The position numbers are program-made. This document shows, one piece after another, positions 3,001 to 60,000 of a stretch of DNA of 64,000 nt. The DNA is taken from assembly GCA_041694815.1 (NCBI GenBank), contig JBGFSC010000007.1, forward strand, positions 1-64,000, in the 5' to 3' direction. The stretch's first letter is position 1. Every line of letters starts with the position of its first letter. Source of the stretch: Elusimicrobiota bacterium. GTDB lineage: Bacteria > Elusimicrobiota > Elusimicrobia > UBA1565 > JACRDR01.

Positions 3001-6000
3001 CACTGGAGATGAGACCTTCCCTCACCCTATTGGCATCAGCGGCCCTGGTATTGCCGTCAGTTACAAACGCTGCAGCGACCTCGACGGGACACCATGGAAC
3101 TGGACCTTTGCAAAATCGTCGTCCTACGCACAGCTCCGCTCATCTGAAGAGAGCGGCCTGGCCTACGAGATGCTCGAGGAATACGAGGATGACTTTGGCA
3201 ACAGCCGTCTGCTCTTGCTGGTGAACGAACGAGCCTCCAAAAAGGAAATCATCCAATTATGTAAGGCGCTTTTACAAAAGTATTCGCATCAGGATGACTT
3301 TACGATCCATATCTATAACAAGAGGGAAGCATTTGAGAAACGAGACGTTCTGAGGCACCCTCCCAATAAATATTTTAAGCATCTAATCGCCAGAGTCTGG
3401 CGACACCGGAACGCCCAAAACGACGAGATTCAGTATTTCCCAGATGGACTATATCTTCTCTTGCCCAAAAAGAAAATATAAGGCTCCACCTATGTCTAAC
3501 TCCGGACTACTTTGCAGCCACCCGCTTATCGATCAGCAACAATAACGCTTCCGGGAAATACCGAATCTCATCGAATTTTGCATTTCGAAATCGGGAAACC
3601 TCCGCGATCAAATGGCTGAAATACCGTTCCTTAGGATAAGTAAAAACATCTCGGTTGCGATAAGCTTCGGTATCGTCGTAAATATGAACCGTAAAGTCGA
3701 TCTGGTGGTCGTATTTCTGGATTAGAGCTTTGCATAGCGCAATTACTTCTTTCTTTCGAGTCCCTGGTTTCACGTAAAGATAGGGGCGCGAGTTTCCGAA
3801 AGAATCCCTGCATTCCCCGAGGCTTTCGTATTTTACTGTAGAGGACTCATAATTGCTGGGTGCCGCGTGAACGACGGATCTCGCAAGGCTACGGCTCCAT
3901 GGTTTTCCGTCTAGGCCGCTGCAGCGCTTGTAACTGACGGCAAGCCCCTGACCTCCGATGCCGTGGGGAAAGGTAGCATCCGCCACTAAGACGCTATCTA
4001 GGCAGGGATGGGCCTTGAGCATATCCAGAAAATCACGCATCTTACAGGCCTCAAATCCTCCGGGATTCACGTCATGATGCACGATGAGGCCGCCTTCCCT
4101 CACTAAGGGCAGAAAAAGATCAAAATAGTGAAGGTTATCTTCTTTTAGCGCGTCAGAAAATACGACGTCGAACTTCTGCTTAAGCGTTGGAAGCACGGCC
4201 AAGGCGTCGCCCTCGATCAGGGTAACGATATCCTCAACCCCCGCATTTTCAAAGTTCCTTCGGGCCATGCGGACTCTCTTAGAATCGATTTCGATTGTGG
4301 TCAGTCGCCCTCCAGTTTGGCGGAGGCCGAGGGTAAAATGGAGCGACGAGAATCCAAGGCCTGTGCCGATTTCCAGCACGTTCTTTGCCTTAGACGCCTG
4401 GACTAAGATTTGAAGGAACTTGCCGTCTTCGGGCGACACCAAGCCGTATTGCATTTGAGCAGGAGTTGCGTGCATAGGCCCAAGCATTTCAATAACATCT
4501 CGAATTTTGGCGGTCGCCGAATTGTATGTCGGGTCTACCGATGGAGTTTGAGCGGCTGCCCCGTAAAGGGCAAATAGAAAACAAATCTTAAAAAGCATCT
4601 CCTTAGACCCGATCTAAGAGCCGATGGCTTTCACAGAAGCACTTGTCATGGCGTTTCATGCATCGTAATCGCGCTGCGACGGGAAAAGGAAGCCGTTCAA
4701 GCATTGCGGGTTGCAGAATCCAGTCATCTCCTGGTCCCGGAGCCGGCGCCGGTATTCCTGCATGCCGGGACCGTTCCAGATCGCCTTGAGTGGCTGCCGC
4801 ATGAGATTGCCGGCAGGGATCGGACATAAACACTCCGGATGGATGTCACCGTTAAAATCCATGCGGACGATGAATTTTTTCCACGGCTTCGCGCACCCAA
4901 TGGAGGGACTGCAGGAGCCGTTCAAAACGCGCCGGACGGCATATCTTTTCGAAGGTCTCCGGGATTACGGAATCGATAGACCAGGCTATAGACGCATCGG
5001 CCTCCGCCAGGACATCCGCCCAATACTCGTCGATCAACACACCGGCGGTGGTTATCTGTTGCTCAAGCCGGGAATACCGGCTTCCGGCCAATAGAAGCTT
5101 CTGGAAATACGGCGCCAGAAACACCTCTCCCCCTTGCCAATTGATGCGCTGTAGATAAGGAAATAGTTCAGCGATCTCCCATGCCTTTTCCTCCGGCAAG
5201 ATCTTATTCGATACTTCTCGGGAACAATGGATGCAATGGAGGTTGCACTCGGTCGTCAGGATCGCCATGAGCTCGATCGGCCAAGACTCCAGAACAATCT
5301 TTCGCGCCTCGAATTCCCGTTGGTTGACTTCGAGATTGCGTTCCAAACACGAGGGATAGTCTAATAATGCGGCTACCTGTGGCATGTCTATACGATTTCC
5401 CCACAGACGGGGATGCCGCCTTGCCAACGCTCCCACTCTTGCTGGCTCATTCTGTTTTCTCGACCCAAGAGGCAGTTCATGCCGCACCAGTCGGTAGCAC
5501 CGCGAGCTATCTTTTCGCGGAAGCCTCGCATCATCGAGGAGTTCCAGAACGCCATCAGGTCGAAGTTCTCGCCAAAACGCATTTCGGGGATGCAGCCGCA
5601 GGCGACCGAAACGCCTCCGGGGTGGATATAGAGCCTTCTCCAGGGCAGCACGCAATGAAGCCGGTCGATCGGGCGGACGGGATCCTGGCATTGCTGGGAG
5701 CCGAAAGCAGGACCATCTAAGCTCTGCGGCTGTACCTGATGCGATTCCACGCGCATGTGGCTTTCCCTTAATTCCGCGGCCAAATACGGCTCTTTTTCAA
5801 TGACTTCTCCAGGCGTCGTCAAGCAAGGCCAATTACATGCCAGTCCATTCGCCTCGCAGAGGCGATTGACCCGGGGAACCTCCTCTATGAGGCGCTGCAG
5901 CAATCGATTATTTTCCGGCGCATAGAGGTTTTCGCCGTGGACGTCAGGAATATAGTCGAATGCCTTCATCATTTTGAAATTGATCCGCGCAAAGCGATGC

Positions 6001-57000: not shown

Positions 57001-60000
57001 AAGGACTTTTTCGGCAATTTCCTCCGCGCGTTTAACGCTTGCCAAAAACTGATCATCGACAATGCGCACTTCCTTGATGCCGAAGGCTTTATAATGTACG
57101 AGTTCCGCCAACACGCGATCGGCGCTAAAAACACGGTACTGATCGTACGATGCCGAGCAGAAACTACACTCGGAGGGGCAGCCCCTGCTGGTCTCCAACT
57201 GAATCAGTGGGTGGCTGCGAGCGATCAGGCGCGGATTGCGGTAGCGCCAGAATTCATAGAGCTCCAGATCCTGGAATGGAAGCGCATCAAGCTCATCGCG
57301 GCGCATTTTAGGCCGTGGCGGCGTGAATTCGATCTCAGGCTCGTCCGAAAGGACCGCATCCTTTTGAACGGCATAAGCGCCCTCACCGTTGGCAAGGCGT
57401 GTAATAATCCCATCGACGTCGATCATCATCCGCCGCCGATCATCCTTCCGGTAAGCGATCCCTTTGATCTCGGCTCGTGCCTTCTGCTGGCAGATTTCAC
57501 CGAACGTTTTTTCTCCTTCTCCGATAACGACCACATCGCACATCGAATCGACCAGGCTTTCCACGGGCAGACGCCGGTTGAGGCCACCCGAAGCATGCAC
57601 TCCTCCGTGGATCACGATCGACTCGGGTCCCAACACCCACTTGGCAATGATACCCGCCAACTTGGCCTCATAATAGACCGGTGTCGTAACGGTTAGGCAG
57701 ACGAATTTCGGCTTTTCCTCAATGAGAAATCGGACCAGCCCCTTCCAAGCCATGGCTTGGCGGTTATCACGTATGCCCATATCGAAGATCGCAGTCTTAA
57801 ATCCAGGGATCAGCCTTTTGACGTACGCTGATAGCCAAAGAAAGGCTCCAACCATCTGCACCTGCGTGGCAACGTCAATCTTCGTTCCCGTATAAGCGGT
57901 GAACATGCTGGGTTGCACGATGAATGCCGCCTTCGCTTCGTCTAGCTTAGGGTGCATTGCTAATTATCACTCACGCGATTAAATATGGTAAAAGGCGTCA
58001 GCGCAGATGAGCGGCAAACAAAAATCAGGCCTAGTCCGAGGCGCGACGACAGTCTTCTTCCTCGCAACCGCGGCGCTTCTTTGGCGCGAATTAGGCCGCA
58101 CAGGGCTCATATCGGATGAAGGGCGCTTGGGAGCCTACGCCTCCTACATGCTCTGGGGTGAGCCGGCGCTGGAGCTCCTACAGAATCCTTTCCAGCAGTT
58201 CGCGGGCCGCATACTACTTCAGTATAGCTTTTATGTCGGCCCATGGAACTGTTACGCCGTAGCGCTTATGCTCTGGCTAACCCAGGACAAAGTGCTGGCC
58301 ATCAAGCTGGTCGCGCTCACATGGGGGCTTTTAGGGGTTTGGGCTTGCTACCGACTCTCTTCTGTCTGCTCCTGTAGCAGGAGAACGGGCCTTTTGAGCG
58401 CAGCCGTACTGGTAACAAGTCCTTTTTTCCTTTCCATGTTGAGGGCCGATTTCTTCCTGCCTGCGATTTTCTTCACCGCTTTCGCTTTCGCAATGCTGTT
58501 TAAGGTCGTGCGAACCGGACGTGACAAACACTGGCTTTTATCGCTGGCGCTAGTGGGCATGGGCATTGGCTTCTCCCACCCATTCTTAGCGGCGGCGGCC
58601 TCTTTTCTTTTACTCGCTTGGCGGCATCGCCGGCGTCTACCGATCCTCCGTCCGGGAAAGACGCCGACCTCCCGGCTTGCCTTATCGACGGCGCTGCTCT
58701 CCGTGGGCATATTCCCGCTCGTGCTGGCAAACATGCTCAACGGATGGCAAGCGCTGACATGGGCCTTCGAATTCCTGTTCGTTTCGCTCAACGGAGTCCA
58801 TAACGACGATTATCTGCGGAACCTGGCGCATCGACTGGGCGATCTCGTCAAGGTGTTCGGCTTACCCGGCCTATCTCTTTCTGGATTGGCACTGGCTCTC
58901 TATGCCATCGGCCGACAACGCTCGTCGCCGAATGCCAACACCGCAGGATCGCTTTGGGTCGCGACAGCCCCCATCGTGCTGCTATCTCCGCTCACCTTCT
59001 GTTCCTTAGTCCCCCCTCACTTGGCGTCCCTTTTTCCGATCGTTCTCGCCGCCATCGCCGCGACGCCTTGCGCCATTTCTGCCGCGCACGGCAGGTGGAG
59101 AGCGACCGCTCCCTTGGTCCTTGGGCTTTGGCTCGGCGTCAATGTTTTGAGCCGGGCACGAGGTCGCGGGACAGCGGTTCCAGAAGCACCCCGGCAGATC
59201 CTCGATGTGGCGCGCTGGGCCGATAACCGAACTGGAACCTACTCTACGTTCTCTTTCTCAACCTACTGGCCTTTGATCTACCTTATGAAGAATAGCCAAA
59301 ACATCGATTGTTTTATCGGCAGGCGGTCTGACCCCGTAGCCTTGGAGCGCCACGTCGGCGCTATGATCGACCAATCACACCGACACGGAGCCGTGCTTAT
59401 GACCGGTGATCCCCTTGAAAAGCCGGCTCTCACCGCGATGGCATCGGCGGCGCGGCGGCGCGGAAAAAAGATTGTTCTTGCCGAGCAATTCAGGGCAGGC
59501 GATGGCTCGGTGGTGTATAGGGTCTATGAATTCCGGTGATACCTTCAGACGAACCGGTATTTCAGAAGACTCCAAAGCCCAATAAAAAAATCCGCGGCTT
59601 TAATTTTTTTCCCTTCAGCCCTTGACCTAGGATGGTATCCGACCTCCACCTCGATAATCGGCAATCCCCGAAGAATCAGCTTGGCGGTGATCTCATGGTC
59701 TGCCTCGAATCCTAAGGATTGAACGCCCATGCCCCGCACCTGGTCGATCGGATAAAGCTTGTATCCAGTCAACGGGTCGGCGATTCGACGCTGATATAAA
59801 AGCGCGATCCAGGCCGATAGCAGACGGTTGGCCAGCCAGGCACCAATCTCTTGATTAGGGTGCTTTTTCCCCCGTGCAACCCCGCGACTTCCGTAAACTG
59901 CTGCCTCAGGATGGCGCGCCAAGGCCTCCAGCATTCTTGGATAGTCGCAAGGATCGTATTCGAGATCCGCGTCTTGGATCAGAACATAATCGCCGGAGGC

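Follow-up and report, generated by a model that had tools for sequence, protein, structure and literature searches.

A radical SAM gene array at the tail of a Wzm/Wzt and glycosyltransferase operon in an Elusimicrobiota genome, with a probable role in tailoring a cell-surface polysaccharide

In this work, we analyzed a 64-kb stretch of an Elusimicrobiota genome (the window) and conclude that the radical SAM (rSAM) gene array which it carries probably serves the cytoplasmic, radical-based tailoring of a cell-surface polysaccharide exported by an ABC transporter of the Wzm/Wzt type. This reading builds on the gene content, operon layout, domain fusions and co-location observed in the window and in other genomes. 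A longer operon, headed by Wzm/Wzt and glycosyltransferase genes, ends in the array: on a single strand, Wzm, Wzt, a GT2-like gene and a GT4 gene are followed by the array from S1 to S8, with overlaps or gaps of at most 75 nt. The features of the window are as follows, with the three rSAM families designated T (short twitch-type), B (B12-binding) and S (SPASM/twitch).

2357–3478, plus strand: O-methyltransferase (Methyltransf_3, 3e-22)
3510–4598, minus: O-methyltransferase (Methyltransf_3, 1.4e-27)
4656–5691, minus: S8, pseudogene
5391–6587, 6594–7664 and 7664–9328, minus: S7, S6 and B6 with TPR (Pfam)
9256–10086, 10079–12079, 11892–12800 and 13482–14759, minus: T11, S5, T10 and T9 (Pfam)
12796–13572, minus: C-terminal B fragment, without Cys motif
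14630–15394, minus: M2, MBL-fold hydrolase (Pfam)
15310–16278, 16208–17278, 17290–18777 and 18678–19628, minus: T8, T7, B5 and T6 (Pfam; T6 predicted structure with pLDDT 92.4)
19628–22339, minus: B4, 904 aa, B12-rSAM fused to SGNH/GDSL and TPR, without TM segment
22282–23436, minus: T5, under the Pfam cut-off
23427–24809, minus: B3, B12-binding rSAM (Pfam)
24816–25499, minus: M1, MBL-fold hydrolase (Lactamase_B_2, 7e-19)
25499–26422, 26413–27258 and 27254–28246, minus: T4, T3 and T2 (Pfam, NCBIfam; T3 and T4 72–76% identical to genes of locus L002)
28168–29541, minus: S4, rSAM/SPASM (Pfam)
29301–31253, minus: B2, B12-binding rSAM (Pfam)
31253–32521, minus: S3, rSAM/SPASM (Pfam)
32550–33266, minus: H2, weak beta-helix (Beta_helix, 2e-4; 26% identity to H1)
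33266–34216, minus: T1, short twitch-type rSAM (Pfam, NCBIfam)
34225–35427, minus: S2, rSAM/SPASM (Pfam; 71% identity to a gene of locus L051)
35376–37025, minus: B1, B12-binding rSAM with C-terminal TPR (Pfam; closest solved structure TokK, 4e-10; 65% identity to a gene of locus L033)
37091–37933, minus: H1, small right-handed beta-helix without TM segment (Beta_helix, 1.3e-12; NosD, 4.9e-09)
37944–39134, minus: S1, rSAM/SPASM (Pfam, NCBIfam)
39213–40481, minus: GT4-family glycosyltransferase (Glyco_trans_1_4, 1.6e-25; 44% identity to the GT4 of genome G176)
40481–41836, minus: 452-aa protein without any Pfam family, GT2-like by language-model features only
41796–42974, minus: Wzt-type ABC ATPase (PF00005, 1.2e-18, residues 188–321), 5' end over-extended; no Wzt_C domain found with Pfam
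42545–43315, minus: Wzm, ABC-2 permease (PF01061, 2.5e-11), at the head of the operon; the genome has three ABC2_membrane matches, this one included
43365–48668, plus: 1768-aa parallel beta-helix (NosD/Beta_helix) protein (Beta_helix, 3e-85), divergent from wzm
48675–50879, plus: DegT-type sugar aminotransferase and NAD epimerase/dehydratase (Pfam)
50948–53862, plus: cassette of a 36-aa ORF, PqqD (51073–51357), a GT2-PqqD fusion (51317–52543) and an rSAM gene (52531–53862)
53869–55419, minus: outlying B12-rSAM (Pfam, NCBIfam)
within 53869–57957, minus: class I methyltransferase, between the two outlying B12-rSAM genes
56356–57957, minus: B9, HpnJ-like outlying B12-rSAM (NCBIfam)
58007–60381: PMT_2 (GT-C) glycosyltransferase on the plus strand and GT2 on the minus strand (Pfam)

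Pfam and NCBIfam searches on our own ORF calls, which were crude (longest ORF, greedy), reproduced the count of the initial annotation, namely 27 rSAM genes among 31 tightly packed minus-strand ORFs at 4656–39134; the remainder comprises two MBL-fold genes and two for small beta-helix proteins. Three further rSAM genes lie beyond the array, 30 of the 50 Radical_SAM matches of the 2.77-Mb genome fall in the window, and all the rSAM ORFs save the B fragment retain CxxxCxxC. All-against-all BLASTP delimited the families T (11 members, 26–57% identity), B (six full genes plus the fragment, 28–44%) and S (eight genes, heterogeneous at 20–37%, with S1 almost isolated), a spread for which the 35–57% given previously is too narrow. 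Two of the eleven T members score under the Pfam Radical_SAM cut-off of 29.5 bits (21.8 and 26.6 bits), as noted previously. The two outlying B12 genes are only 23–30% identical to the members of B. The reported break of one S gene was also recovered: residues 26–159 of its paralogue S6 match one frame of S8 (4903–5295) and residues 274–350 another (4689–4919), with about 114 residues missing. The Cys motif starts at residues 16–65 in the T ORFs and 42–56 in S1, S2, S3, S6 and S7, with later onsets in S4 (135) and S5 (99), both over-extended ORFs; these ORFs show no peptide-recognition domain.

A link to glycan assembly comes from other phyla. In two Omnitrophota loci (L003, L075) and one of Planctomycetales (L080), a single ORF of 1932–2163 aa with the domain order GT2-GT2-GT4-rSAM/SPASM, two of the three with a second rSAM/SPASM domain, immediately follows Wzm and a Wzt carrying Wzt_C and immediately precedes B, T and S genes. 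The GT4, S1 and S2 of the window correspond, in the same order, to the GT4, first S and second S domains of these proteins, with 32–34% identity over about 420 aa, 32–40% over 336–357 aa and 36–37% over 365 aa, respectively, each match spanning the full length. GT and Radical_SAM domains occur together in 49 of 62 database relatives (E ≤ 1e-20). Such fusions were observed in other phyla and not in Elusimicrobiota. Besides, a closed genome carries a minimal operon, Wzm-Wzt-T-B-S-GT2 followed by an unknown gene, whose B and S share 45% and 36% identity with B1 and S1, respectively. As for the 452-aa protein, its ten best named atlas matches were all GT2 (scores 0.90–0.93), a lead rather than a result.

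The initial annotation described T, B and S as co-travelling families forming a conserved unit, and recurrence, fusions and orthology all bear this out; the unit is also unnamed, since its genes reach no NCBIfam model at cut-off. In 60 loci, with domains counted at E ≤ 1e-8 over at least half of the model and HMMs derived from the sequences of this window alone, the three families occur together in 20 and at least 10 members in 12, fewer than the 42 and 25 of 59 loci claimed before, with the same maximum of 16. All 41 longer relatives of T6 were fusions (24 T-T, two T-T-T, four T-T-T-T, two T-T-S, three T-S, two SGNH-T and one each of T-B-T-T, B-T-T, T-B-T and B-T), and the fetched loci held 30 multi-domain ORFs, B-T-S among them. 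For 23 of 28 rSAM ORFs the match in the locus of another genome was better than to any paralogue in the window, at 50–80% identity for 14 of them; by this measure, most paralogues of the window have orthologues elsewhere. These data support T, B and S as one functional unit that recurs in Elusimicrobiota, Omnitrophota and Planctomycetia.

The flanks had been regarded as not conserved, a view that does not hold for what the genes do: individual genes vary, but their class is constant, given the glycan neighbours, the proximity of Wzm and the S-type rSAM-glycosyltransferase fusions. Among 106 ORFs scanned within two genes of arrays, 32 of the 48 with Pfam annotation are glycan assembly or tailoring genes (11 GT2, 5 PMT_2 and 5 SGNH, besides carbamoyltransferase, YdjC, O-methyltransferase, NTP-transferase, Wzt_C and GT9). 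With seven candidates scored per genome and in fragmented assemblies, six of ten further Elusimicrobiota genomes picked from the T-positive list have Wzm at a distance of about 12 kb or less from T genes, and in the other four it is not near the listed T genes; in four of five Omnitrophota/Planctomycetia genomes it lies 0–5 kb from rSAM genes. ABC2_membrane matches are scarce, with 1–9 per compared genome. In a Victivallales locus, a lone SGNH-T fusion gene is flanked by Wzm-Wzt(Wzt_C) on one side and pyruvyl transferase/GT1/GT2/GT2 on the other, and in a Cloacimonadota locus another lies between C5-epimerase, pyruvyl transferase and Wzx. A second locus of the same genome (contig C42) combines T, B and S with three PMT_2, five SGNH, GT2 and AsnB.

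From this context we infer a surface glycan as the substrate class. The GT2-like protein and GT4 would assemble a lipid-linked glycan at the cytoplasmic side of the membrane, as the single GT2-GT2-GT4 polypeptide would do in other phyla, and some 25 oxygen-sensitive rSAM enzymes would alter its sugars at unactivated carbons before export. The individual reactions can only be guessed: the B family might carry out cobalamin-dependent C-methylation, and S and T the hydrogen-abstraction chemistry of sugar-acting relatives (oxidation, epimerisation, dehydration, decarboxylation). The O-methyltransferases and the SGNH domain may put further marks on the glycan, which would be exported through Wzm/Wzt and finished by GT-C (PMT_2) in the periplasm and by SGNH-TPR proteins anchored in the membrane. 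Against this reading, the window yielded no initiating phosphoglycosyl transferase, and its Wzt lacks Wzt_C. The genome encodes LpxC and four Wzy_C/WaaL-type matches, so that an LPS O-polysaccharide is possible.

Other substrates have to be weighed against the polysaccharide. Many C-methylations, epimerisations or cross-links might instead be put on a ribosomal, possibly glycosylated, peptide or protein, for which the product of the 36-aa ORF and the large beta-helix proteins are candidates; we consider this unlikely. The best NCBIfam matches of B are indeed RiPP C-methyltransferases (TIGR03975, ApyD), but at half the cut-off (125–147 bits against 282), and B proteins carry TPR domains. In sequence and fold, T is nearest both to the peptide maturases SkfB, CteB and SuiB and to the sugar/nucleotide enzymes BlsE, MoaA, viperin, BtrN and DesII, at TM-scores of only 0.4–0.57, which do not discriminate between the two groups. 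Peptide-binding PqqD domains occur close to arrays, in the window within the cassette 12 kb away and in G176 adjoining GT2/GT9; the cassette, previously held to lack an orthologue at E ≤ 1e-40 in 100 genomes of the order, is present as described and has one full-length relative in one of them (E 3e-42, 31% identity), a result close to the earlier one. However, the 27 array genes neither contain an RRE or PqqD domain nor have one between them, no array gap exceeds 75 nt, thus leaving no room for a precursor gene inside the array, and none of the 106 ORFs beside the arrays of relatives carries PqqD, leader peptidase or peptide-exporter domains. Giant beta-helix proteins adjoin arrays here and in G043 (a 3120-aa counterpart), but beta-helix genes are missing from most arrays (the H model matched 3 of 780 ORFs), and the S domains are joined to glycosyltransferases rather than to RRE domains. 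Tailoring of a lipid, or of the lipid part of a glycolipid exported by Wzm/Wzt, by alkyl-chain methylation, bridging or cyclisation, is quite improbable as well. The hopanoid side-chain genes HpnI/J/K are of the GT2, B12-rSAM and YdjC types, YdjC-GT2 fusions adjoin arrays, and SGNH domains also occur in lipases, but the HpnJ likeness of B9 is far under the cut-off (154 bits against 578). A published precedent for a SPASM/twitch and B12-rSAM gene pair is that of archaeal Gms and Gmm, which act on tetraether lipids; according to the accessible part of that report, homologues are also encoded in Planctomycetes and Acidobacteria (PMC11214058). Against this, the likeness of the T profile to the structure of tetraether synthase is confined to the N-terminal cluster motif (29 bits, profile positions 12–102), no fatty-acid, isoprenoid, acyltransferase or tes/mss-type genes were found among 106 plus 96 flanking ORFs, though no search aimed at tes/mss or squalene-hopene cyclase was made, and the fusion partners are glycosyltransferase polymerase-like proteins.

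It is very doubtful that the rSAM enzymes form a catabolic system for imported polysaccharides that are recalcitrant through methylation or otherwise unusual: sulfatase genes lie close to arrays on C42 and in G176, and the paralogue expansion is reminiscent of polysaccharide-utilisation loci, but the transporter is of the exporter type (Wzm/Wzt with Wzt_C), the genes found alongside encode glycosyltransferases, nucleotidyl transferases and methyltransferases instead of glycoside hydrolases or uptake systems, and the rSAM-GT fusions speak against it. Synthesis of a novel cofactor is hardly credible. It has been proposed for rSAM suites beside nitrogenase paralogues in groundwater Elusimicrobia, the same phylum, where the accessible part of the report describes up to 13 rSAMs per locus, B12-binding ones included (10.1101/765248). 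Many NifD-like genes occur in three of five array-bearing genomes tested, and the best NCBIfam matches of S1 are NirJ/AhbD-type tetrapyrrole enzymes (60–70 bits). However, the unit is independent of NifHDK paralogues: no PF00148 (NifD/K-like) gene was found in this 97.8%-complete genome; where NifD-like genes do occur, in three genomes, they and the T genes are on different contigs, one T fragment lying 31 kb from a NifD-like gene on G304:C50, and the scanned flanks hold no tetrapyrrole genes.

Altogether, the array points towards an undescribed radical-chemistry decoration of a bacterial cell-surface sugar polymer, and our literature search found no published description of such an array. Among known systems, the proteusins, in which many rSAM-type modifications are placed on a ribosomal peptide, are the model for the peptide-based alternative; the nitrogenase-paralogue rSAM loci, as far as the accessible part of their description goes (10.1101/765248), differ from this array, in whose genome no NifD/K-like gene was found.

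The genes at issue form a minus-strand run without interruption, from 43315 down to 3510 (ORF listing, Pfam and NCBIfam; ORF calls and family HMMs were our own), headed by one of the three ABC2_membrane genes of the genome. Its features, and those beyond it, are listed below.

Features of the operon and its surroundings (Pfam; for the array, Pfam and NCBIfam)
42545-43315, minus strand: Wzm
41796-42974, minus strand: Wzt-type ATPase
40481-41836, minus strand: 452-aa protein without Pfam match
39213-40481, minus strand: GT4 glycosyltransferase
39134 down to 4656, minus strand: array of 31 ORFs, including 27 radical SAM ORFs
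3510-4598, minus strand: O-methyltransferase
43365-48668: 1768-aa parallel beta-helix protein
beyond the array: DegT aminotransferase and epimerase
50948-53865, plus strand: cassette of a 36-aa ORF, PqqD, GT2-PqqD and radical SAM
53869 and 56356: two outlying B12-radical SAM genes, with a methyltransferase
beyond the array: PMT_2, GT2, CofD-like, nucleotidyltransferase and AlgX-like genes

Three radical SAM families (S, SPASM/twitch type; B, B12-binding; T, a short twitch-type family), together with small beta-helix (H) and MBL-fold (M) genes, make up the array in the order S1 H1 B1 S2 T1 H2 S3 B2 S4 T2 T3 T4 M1 B3 T5 B4 T6 B5 T7 T8 M2 T9 Bfrag T10 S5 T11 B6 S6 S7 S8(broken). All junctions are overlaps or gaps of at most 75 nt, and there is therefore no space for an unannotated small gene within the array. 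The motif CxxxCxxC was present in 28 of the 29 radical SAM ORFs checked by motif scan, in which the second piece of the broken S gene (4689-4919) was not counted separately, the exception being the B fragment; PF04055 matched in all radical SAM ORFs, with T5 and T11 under the gathering score. S8, whose reading frame changes and which lacks about 114 residues, is a pseudogene. TPRs are present in B1, B4 and B6, and B4 also has an SGNH/GDSL domain at its C-terminus (Pfam). The gene inventory of the initial annotation, 31 array ORFs of which 27 are radical SAM, is correct, since ORF calls, Pfam and NCBIfam reproduced it. Of the 50 Radical_SAM matches in the 2.77-Mb genome, 30 fall inside the window. 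The two MBL-fold genes (PRK00685-like; 24816-25499 and 14630-15394) are flanked by T genes on both sides, an arrangement also seen in four related loci (L002, L005, L008 and L051). The plus-strand cassette is RiPP-like in composition, with its 36-aa ORF, a 94-aa PqqD, a GT2 with C-terminal PqqD and a radical SAM protein weakly related to T.

BLASTP within the window gave identities of 26-57% among the 11 T members and 28-44% among the six B genes and the B fragment, the genes at 53869 and 56356 being distant from these (23-30%), while S is a loose family (20-37%) in which S1 stands nearly alone. Under single-linkage BLAST clustering, a single component of 344 ORFs took in every radical SAM ORF and even an MBL gene, and family HMMs were used instead. 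None of the window's radical SAM proteins reached a curated NCBIfam cut-off. For all 11 T proteins the top-scoring named model was NF038073 (STM4011 family radical SAM protein), a family from which T is excluded because the scores were 42-93 bits vs a cut-off of 200; the sole match for the STM4011 name in the literature searched concerns, by title and abstract, another Salmonella gene. The T alignment shows CNYRCxYC, and all 11 T members of the window carry an invariant C-x12-G-x4-C followed by C-x4-C, with the first four cysteines invariant across 105 sequences; this C-terminal pattern is the twitch/SPASM auxiliary-cluster signature, CX9-15GX4C plus further cysteines. An AlphaFold model of T6 from the 105-sequence alignment (pLDDT 92.4) matched the folds of SkfB, CteB, BlsE, SuiB and MoaA best, and also those of anSME, viperin, BtrN, DesII and SpeY (TM 0.34-0.57, 13-18% identity). 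The motif and the predicted fold confirm the placement of T in the SPASM/twitch subclass at the level of sequence and model. Among the S genes, five of eight (S1-S5) have a Pfam SPASM match, and S6 and S7 have sub-threshold twitch-model matches only. PF02310 together with PF04055 was found in B1-B6, B8 and B9, with B5 and B9 under the PF02310 cut-off; by these domains B are class B cobalamin-dependent radical SAM enzymes, for which methyl transfer is putative. The closest solved relatives of B1 are TokK and CysS.

The organization of related loci ties these families to glycosyltransferases and to one another. In three of them (L003, L075 and L080) a single ORF of 1932-2163 aa stands directly after Wzm and Wzt (with Wzt_C) and directly before B and the remaining array, with the domain order GT2, GT2, GT4, radical SAM/SPASM, and a second radical SAM/SPASM in two cases. 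These three proteins align along their whole length at 44-53% identity, so the fusion is real. Upstream of it are a WecA-type transferase, a GT1, a flavoprotein and a carbamoyltransferase. The GT4, S1 and S2 of the window match the GT4 part, the first S and the second S of the fusion over their full length and in the same order (32-40% identity), and the window carries, as judged from these alignments, the unfused form of the fusion protein. The gene for the 452-aa protein occupies the place of the GT2 modules; language-model features group this protein with GT2 families, which we regard as a lead only, and neither it nor a 518-aa protein at 811-2364 had a Pfam match even at E up to 0.5. Both GT and Radical_SAM domains were carried by 49 of the 62 database relatives (E<=1e-20), whose source label is plain 'glycosyltransferase'. 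Every one of the 41 longer relatives of T6 is a fusion: 24 T-T, two T-T-T, four T-T-T-T (1276-1313 aa), one each of T-B-T-T, B-T-T, T-B-T and B-T, two T-T-S, three T-S and two SGNH-T. The fetched loci held 30 multi-domain ORFs, including B-T-S, T-B-T, S-T-T and many B-S, and in a closed genome of 1.84 Mb a compact operon (L068:8758-15970) reads Wzm-Wzt-T-B-S-GT2-unknown. The fusions and this minimal T-B-S operon therefore show that T, B and S act on one substrate. Three or four complete T-type modules in one polypeptide of 945-1313 aa were observed in the T6 relatives P0001-P0004 and at L010:7374-10304 and L012:4115-7033; to our knowledge, enzymes with four radical SAM cores have not been described before.

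The neighbours of the arrays were surveyed in loci with at least four radical SAM genes, taking the 106 other ORFs that lie at most two genes away. A Pfam match was obtained for 48, and 32 of these are of glycan assembly or tailoring types, namely 11 GT2 ORFs (two of them one gene in overlapping loci), five PMT_2, five SGNH/GDSL mostly with TPR, two each of carbamoyltransferase, YdjC, O-methyltransferase and sugar nucleotidyltransferase, as well as Wzt_C, GT9, sulfotransferase and epimerase. An ABC-2 permease and ATPase stand in an operon with cytoplasmic glycosyltransferases in the window (39213-43315), and this arrangement was also found in six other genomes (G043, G268, G119, G176, G151 and G045) and six fetched loci (L075, L076, L078, L080, L003 and L059). 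Of 10 Elusimicrobiota genomes picked from the T-positive list, six have a Wzm-type permease no more than about 12 kb from listed T genes, three of them within the array span (ABC2_membrane matches per genome, 1-9), and in the other four none was seen near the listed T genes; in four of five Omnitrophota/Planctomycetia genomes Wzm lies 0-5 kb from radical SAM genes. The glycan-binding domain Wzt_C is present in L003, L059, L075 and L080 and absent from the window's Wzt, and a PF00953-type initiating transferase, found in L075 and L076, was not detected among the window ORFs scanned.

The closed genome has a second locus with LptF, LptG, a 15-gene S/T/B array, a 3120-aa NosD-type beta-helix protein, an unknown gene and a GT4; G268 has the order Wzt-Wzm-unknown-array, and G119 has GT2, YdjC-GT2, methyltransferase, two PMT_2, Wzt, Wzm and the array. 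Two IS200-type transposase genes with a DnaA_C-like HTH fusion lie within or beside the G119 array (L061:4779-5786 and L062:10204-11202). A single T-like domain fused to SGNH occurs inside polysaccharide loci of Victivallales (Wzm, Wzt with Wzt_C, SGNH-T, pyruvyl transferase, GT1, GT2, GT2) and Cloacimonadota (C5-epimerase, pyruvyl transferase, SGNH-T, Wzx). In the window itself, a CofD-like gene (2-phospho-L-lactate transferase family), a MobA-like nucleotidyltransferase and an AlgX-like SGNH gene follow the GT2/PMT_2 pair at 60254-63560 and may add a phospho-linked substituent to the same glycan. Large neighbours were also observed. Very large NosD/parallel beta-helix proteins adjoin arrays in two families of the phylum (1768 aa at 43365-48668; 3120 aa at L070:3060-12419), and neither has a clear signal peptide; the N-terminus of the former has a weak S24 peptidase match (E 0.03, Pfam at E up to 0.5). 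The 518-aa protein without Pfam match (811-2364) recurs near arrays (L072:13352-14959, L065 ~14800-16248). A G290 gene divergent from a GT2 shares 28% identity with it over 518 aa, G176 has it beside GT2-PqqD-GT9, and in G043 the 3120-aa beta-helix protein carries it as its C-terminal domain.

The T alignment retrieved 60 related loci from Elusimicrobia/Endomicrobiaceae, Omnitrophota and Planctomycetia, and, as single or small cassettes, from Polyangia, Pseudomonadota, Acidobacteria, Cloacimonadota, Victivallales and a Pacearchaeota bin. Members were counted at domain level with HMMs trained on the family members in the window, as many ORFs are multi-domain and classing by ORF undercounts them. 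T, B and S occur together in 20 of the 60 loci; at least 10 members were found in 12 loci and at least five in 27, with a maximum of 16. These counts are lower than those of the initial annotation, which gave all three families in 42 of 59 loci and at least 10 members in 25. Within the phylum, 36 of 301 sampled genomes have a T match at E<=1e-20, and presence is patchy within genera (1 of 12 genomes of one genus, 2 of 5 of another). On its contig C42 the genome studied here has another T/B/S locus of smaller size (1-34534; L073 and L074), with S, GT2, TPR proteins, five SGNH with N-terminal anchor, three PMT_2, two B, AsnB, a methyltransferase, two T, a PhyH dioxygenase and a sulfatase. The Pacearchaeota bin has six T genes in a row (L047) near GT2, sulfotransferase and methyltransferase genes and a phage-type metallopeptidase. 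Small S-T-T cassettes in Pseudomonadota, Polyangia and Acidobacteria bins (L048, L052 and L058) adjoin 2-oxoacid:ferredoxin oxidoreductase subunits, a GT28_C protein and a CotH-PA14-LTD protein, a context unlike that of the big arrays.

With regard to the age of the paralogues, 23 of 28 radical SAM ORFs score higher against the locus of another genome than against any paralogue in the window, 14 of them at 50-80% identity; examples are the matches of T7 (80%), T3 (76%) and T4 (72%) to L002, and of S2 (71%) and S4 (67%) to L051. In a T tree of 138 sequences (FastTree, a quick method with local support only), Omnitrophota and Planctomycetota members are dispersed among Elusimicrobiota clades. 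Because of these better matches and this mixing of phyla, we take the array to consist mostly of old, distinct subtypes, and on the cross-genome matches we rejected recent tandem amplification as the origin of most genes. Only T8/T10 (57% identity) and T5/T9 (51%) are likely younger duplicates by tandem amplification, and the S8 pseudogene and the B fragment show ongoing turnover.

Other substrates were weighed against a glycan. The arrays could serve peptide maturation of the RiPP type: among named models B comes nearest to those of RiPP C-methyltransferases, the structures nearest to T include several peptide maturases, and comparing T, B1 and S2 with solved structures in fold and sequence does not separate a peptide from a sugar substrate. 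In addition, PqqD domains lie near arrays in two genomes, both times accompanied by glycosyltransferases, so a peptide or protein could be part of the product. The GT2-PqqD of the 50948-53865 cassette has a full-length relative only in G268 among 100 genomes of the order (E 3e-42, 31% identity), about 28 kb from the array on the same contig. Against this reading, B scores 125-147 bits with TIGR03975, about half of the 281.85 cut-off, T has no N-terminal peptide-recognition domain, the 31 array genes contain no PqqD and no gap above 75 nt in which a precursor gene might lie, the PqqD cassette is separate and 12 kb away, and Pfam found neither PqqD nor RiPP protease nor NifH/D among the 106 neighbours in relatives. 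Given the TIGR03975 scores and the lack of a precursor gene and of an RRE/PqqD in the cluster, we do not place the arrays in RiPP maturation and judge this reading unlikely.

On a nitrogenase-like setting, a 2020 study of groundwater Elusimicrobia (10.1101/765248) describes up to 13 radical SAM genes, some of them B12-binding, beside group VI NifHDK paralogues. The likeness extends to the phylum, the many adjacent radical SAM genes and the B12-binding members, but the genome studied here has no NifHDK paralogue (PF00148, 0 matches). Three of five array-bearing genomes tested (G301, G302 and G304) have many NifD-like genes, on contigs other than those of the T genes, except for one T fragment 31 kb from NifD-like genes. 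On the absence of PF00148 and these separate contigs we rejected a link. Tailoring of a lipid has a real precedent in the tetraether-lipid modifying pair Gms/Gmm, for which clustering with tes or mss lipid synthase genes is the mark, but the flanking ORFs scanned contained no lipid-synthesis Pfam family.

We infer, instead, that the substrate class is a surface glycan, and regard the locus as probably a polysaccharide biosynthesis locus with radical SAM tailoring enzymes in a number without precedent. The four Elusimicrobiota genomes in which Wzm was not seen near the listed T genes, and the occurrence of the GT-radical SAM fusion outside Elusimicrobiota, weigh against this. Radical SAM enzymes require a reducing cytoplasm, and in Wzm/Wzt pathways the whole polymer is completed on its lipid carrier in the cytoplasm and then exported; this compartment logic suits the pairing of the two, hence the following proposal. 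GT modules would assemble the chain, whose sugar carbons S, T and B modules would edit, B by C-methylation and S and T by oxidation, epimerisation, dehydration or decarboxylation, both purely by analogy. The O-methyltransferases and the cytoplasmic SGNH domain of B4 could place further marks, Wzm/Wzt would export the product, and PMT_2 enzymes and the free SGNH-TPR proteins, which have an N-terminal membrane anchor, would act outside. Because the genome carries, outside the window, LpxC (lipid A) and four Wzy_C/WaaL-type matches, LPS O-polysaccharide is one possible destination of the product. A bolder reading, which we hold as speculation and judge rather unlikely, is a polymerase-coupled radical glycan-editing machine, in which GT and up to dozens of radical SAM modules, often in one polypeptide (GT2-GT2-GT4-S-S, B-T-S, T-T-T-T), would edit the growing lipid-linked chain and install C-methyl, epimerised, deoxy or C-C cross-linked sugars at many defined positions. 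Each conserved paralogue would then write one position, the array would be a code for polymer structure, and the product would be a heavily C-modified class of surface polysaccharide new to carbohydrate chemistry.

Radical SAM chemistry on carbohydrates is established in a handful of antibiotic pathways, and we know of no case in the synthesis of a cell-surface polysaccharide. The openly available full-text literature searched contained no description of these arrays, of radical SAM genes in Wzm/Wzt loci or of GT-radical SAM fusions; in the parts seen, a Xanthomonas paper (PMC3130047) and a giant-gene preprint (10.1101/2023.11.21.568195) mention radical SAM only incidentally. If the arrays do tailor an exported glycan, they would represent a large untapped set of enzymes functionalising sugar C-H bonds, spanning three families and dozens of orthologous subtypes and including natural multi-enzyme fusions. 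They would also point to a surface polymer of a new type, shared by Elusimicrobiota, Omnitrophota, Planctomycetia and some archaea. More than half of the radical SAM genes of this genome would gain a function, database proteins labelled only 'glycosyltransferase' would be re-annotated as GT-radical SAM fusions, and the seven-gene minimal operon of the closed genome would offer a tractable entry point.

Among known systems, ABC-transporter O-polysaccharide pathways with multi-domain GT polymerases are exemplified by WbdA/WbdD of E. coli O9a, Klebsiella O2a and Raoultella WbbB. The arrays share with them Wzm and Wzt, large multi-GT polypeptides, methyltransferases and, by our proposal, complete cytoplasmic assembly before export, as well as Wzt_C in four loci, the WecA-type initiator in L075 and L076 and a WaaL-type gene in the genome studied here. 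They differ in their 25 radical SAM enzymes, in a polymerase fused to radical SAM/SPASM and in a window Wzt without Wzt_C, and the literature search found no described Wzm/Wzt-type pathway with radical SAM enzymes or such a polymerase. Sugars and small molecules are tailored in antibiotic pathways by the class B methylases GenK and GenD1 and by the twitch/SPASM enzymes BtrN, BlsE, DesII and SpeY. The same enzyme classes act there on carbohydrate or small-molecule carbons, and the latter four are among the fold matches of T, a likeness that holds at superfamily level only (TM 0.34-0.57, 13-18% identity); the antibiotic pathways employ one to three enzymes, acting on a small metabolite that is secreted, whereas the present loci link dozens of paralogues to a polymer exporter and a polymerase. 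Finally, in proteusin/polytheonamide-type RiPPs a few iterative B12-radical SAM and radical SAM enzymes carry out many radical C-methylations and epimerisations on a gene-encoded peptide with a leader. The arrays would resemble them in the use of both enzyme types for many modifications of one polymer, but, with no precursor gene or RRE in the array, they stand apart by their many dedicated paralogues and their glycan context.
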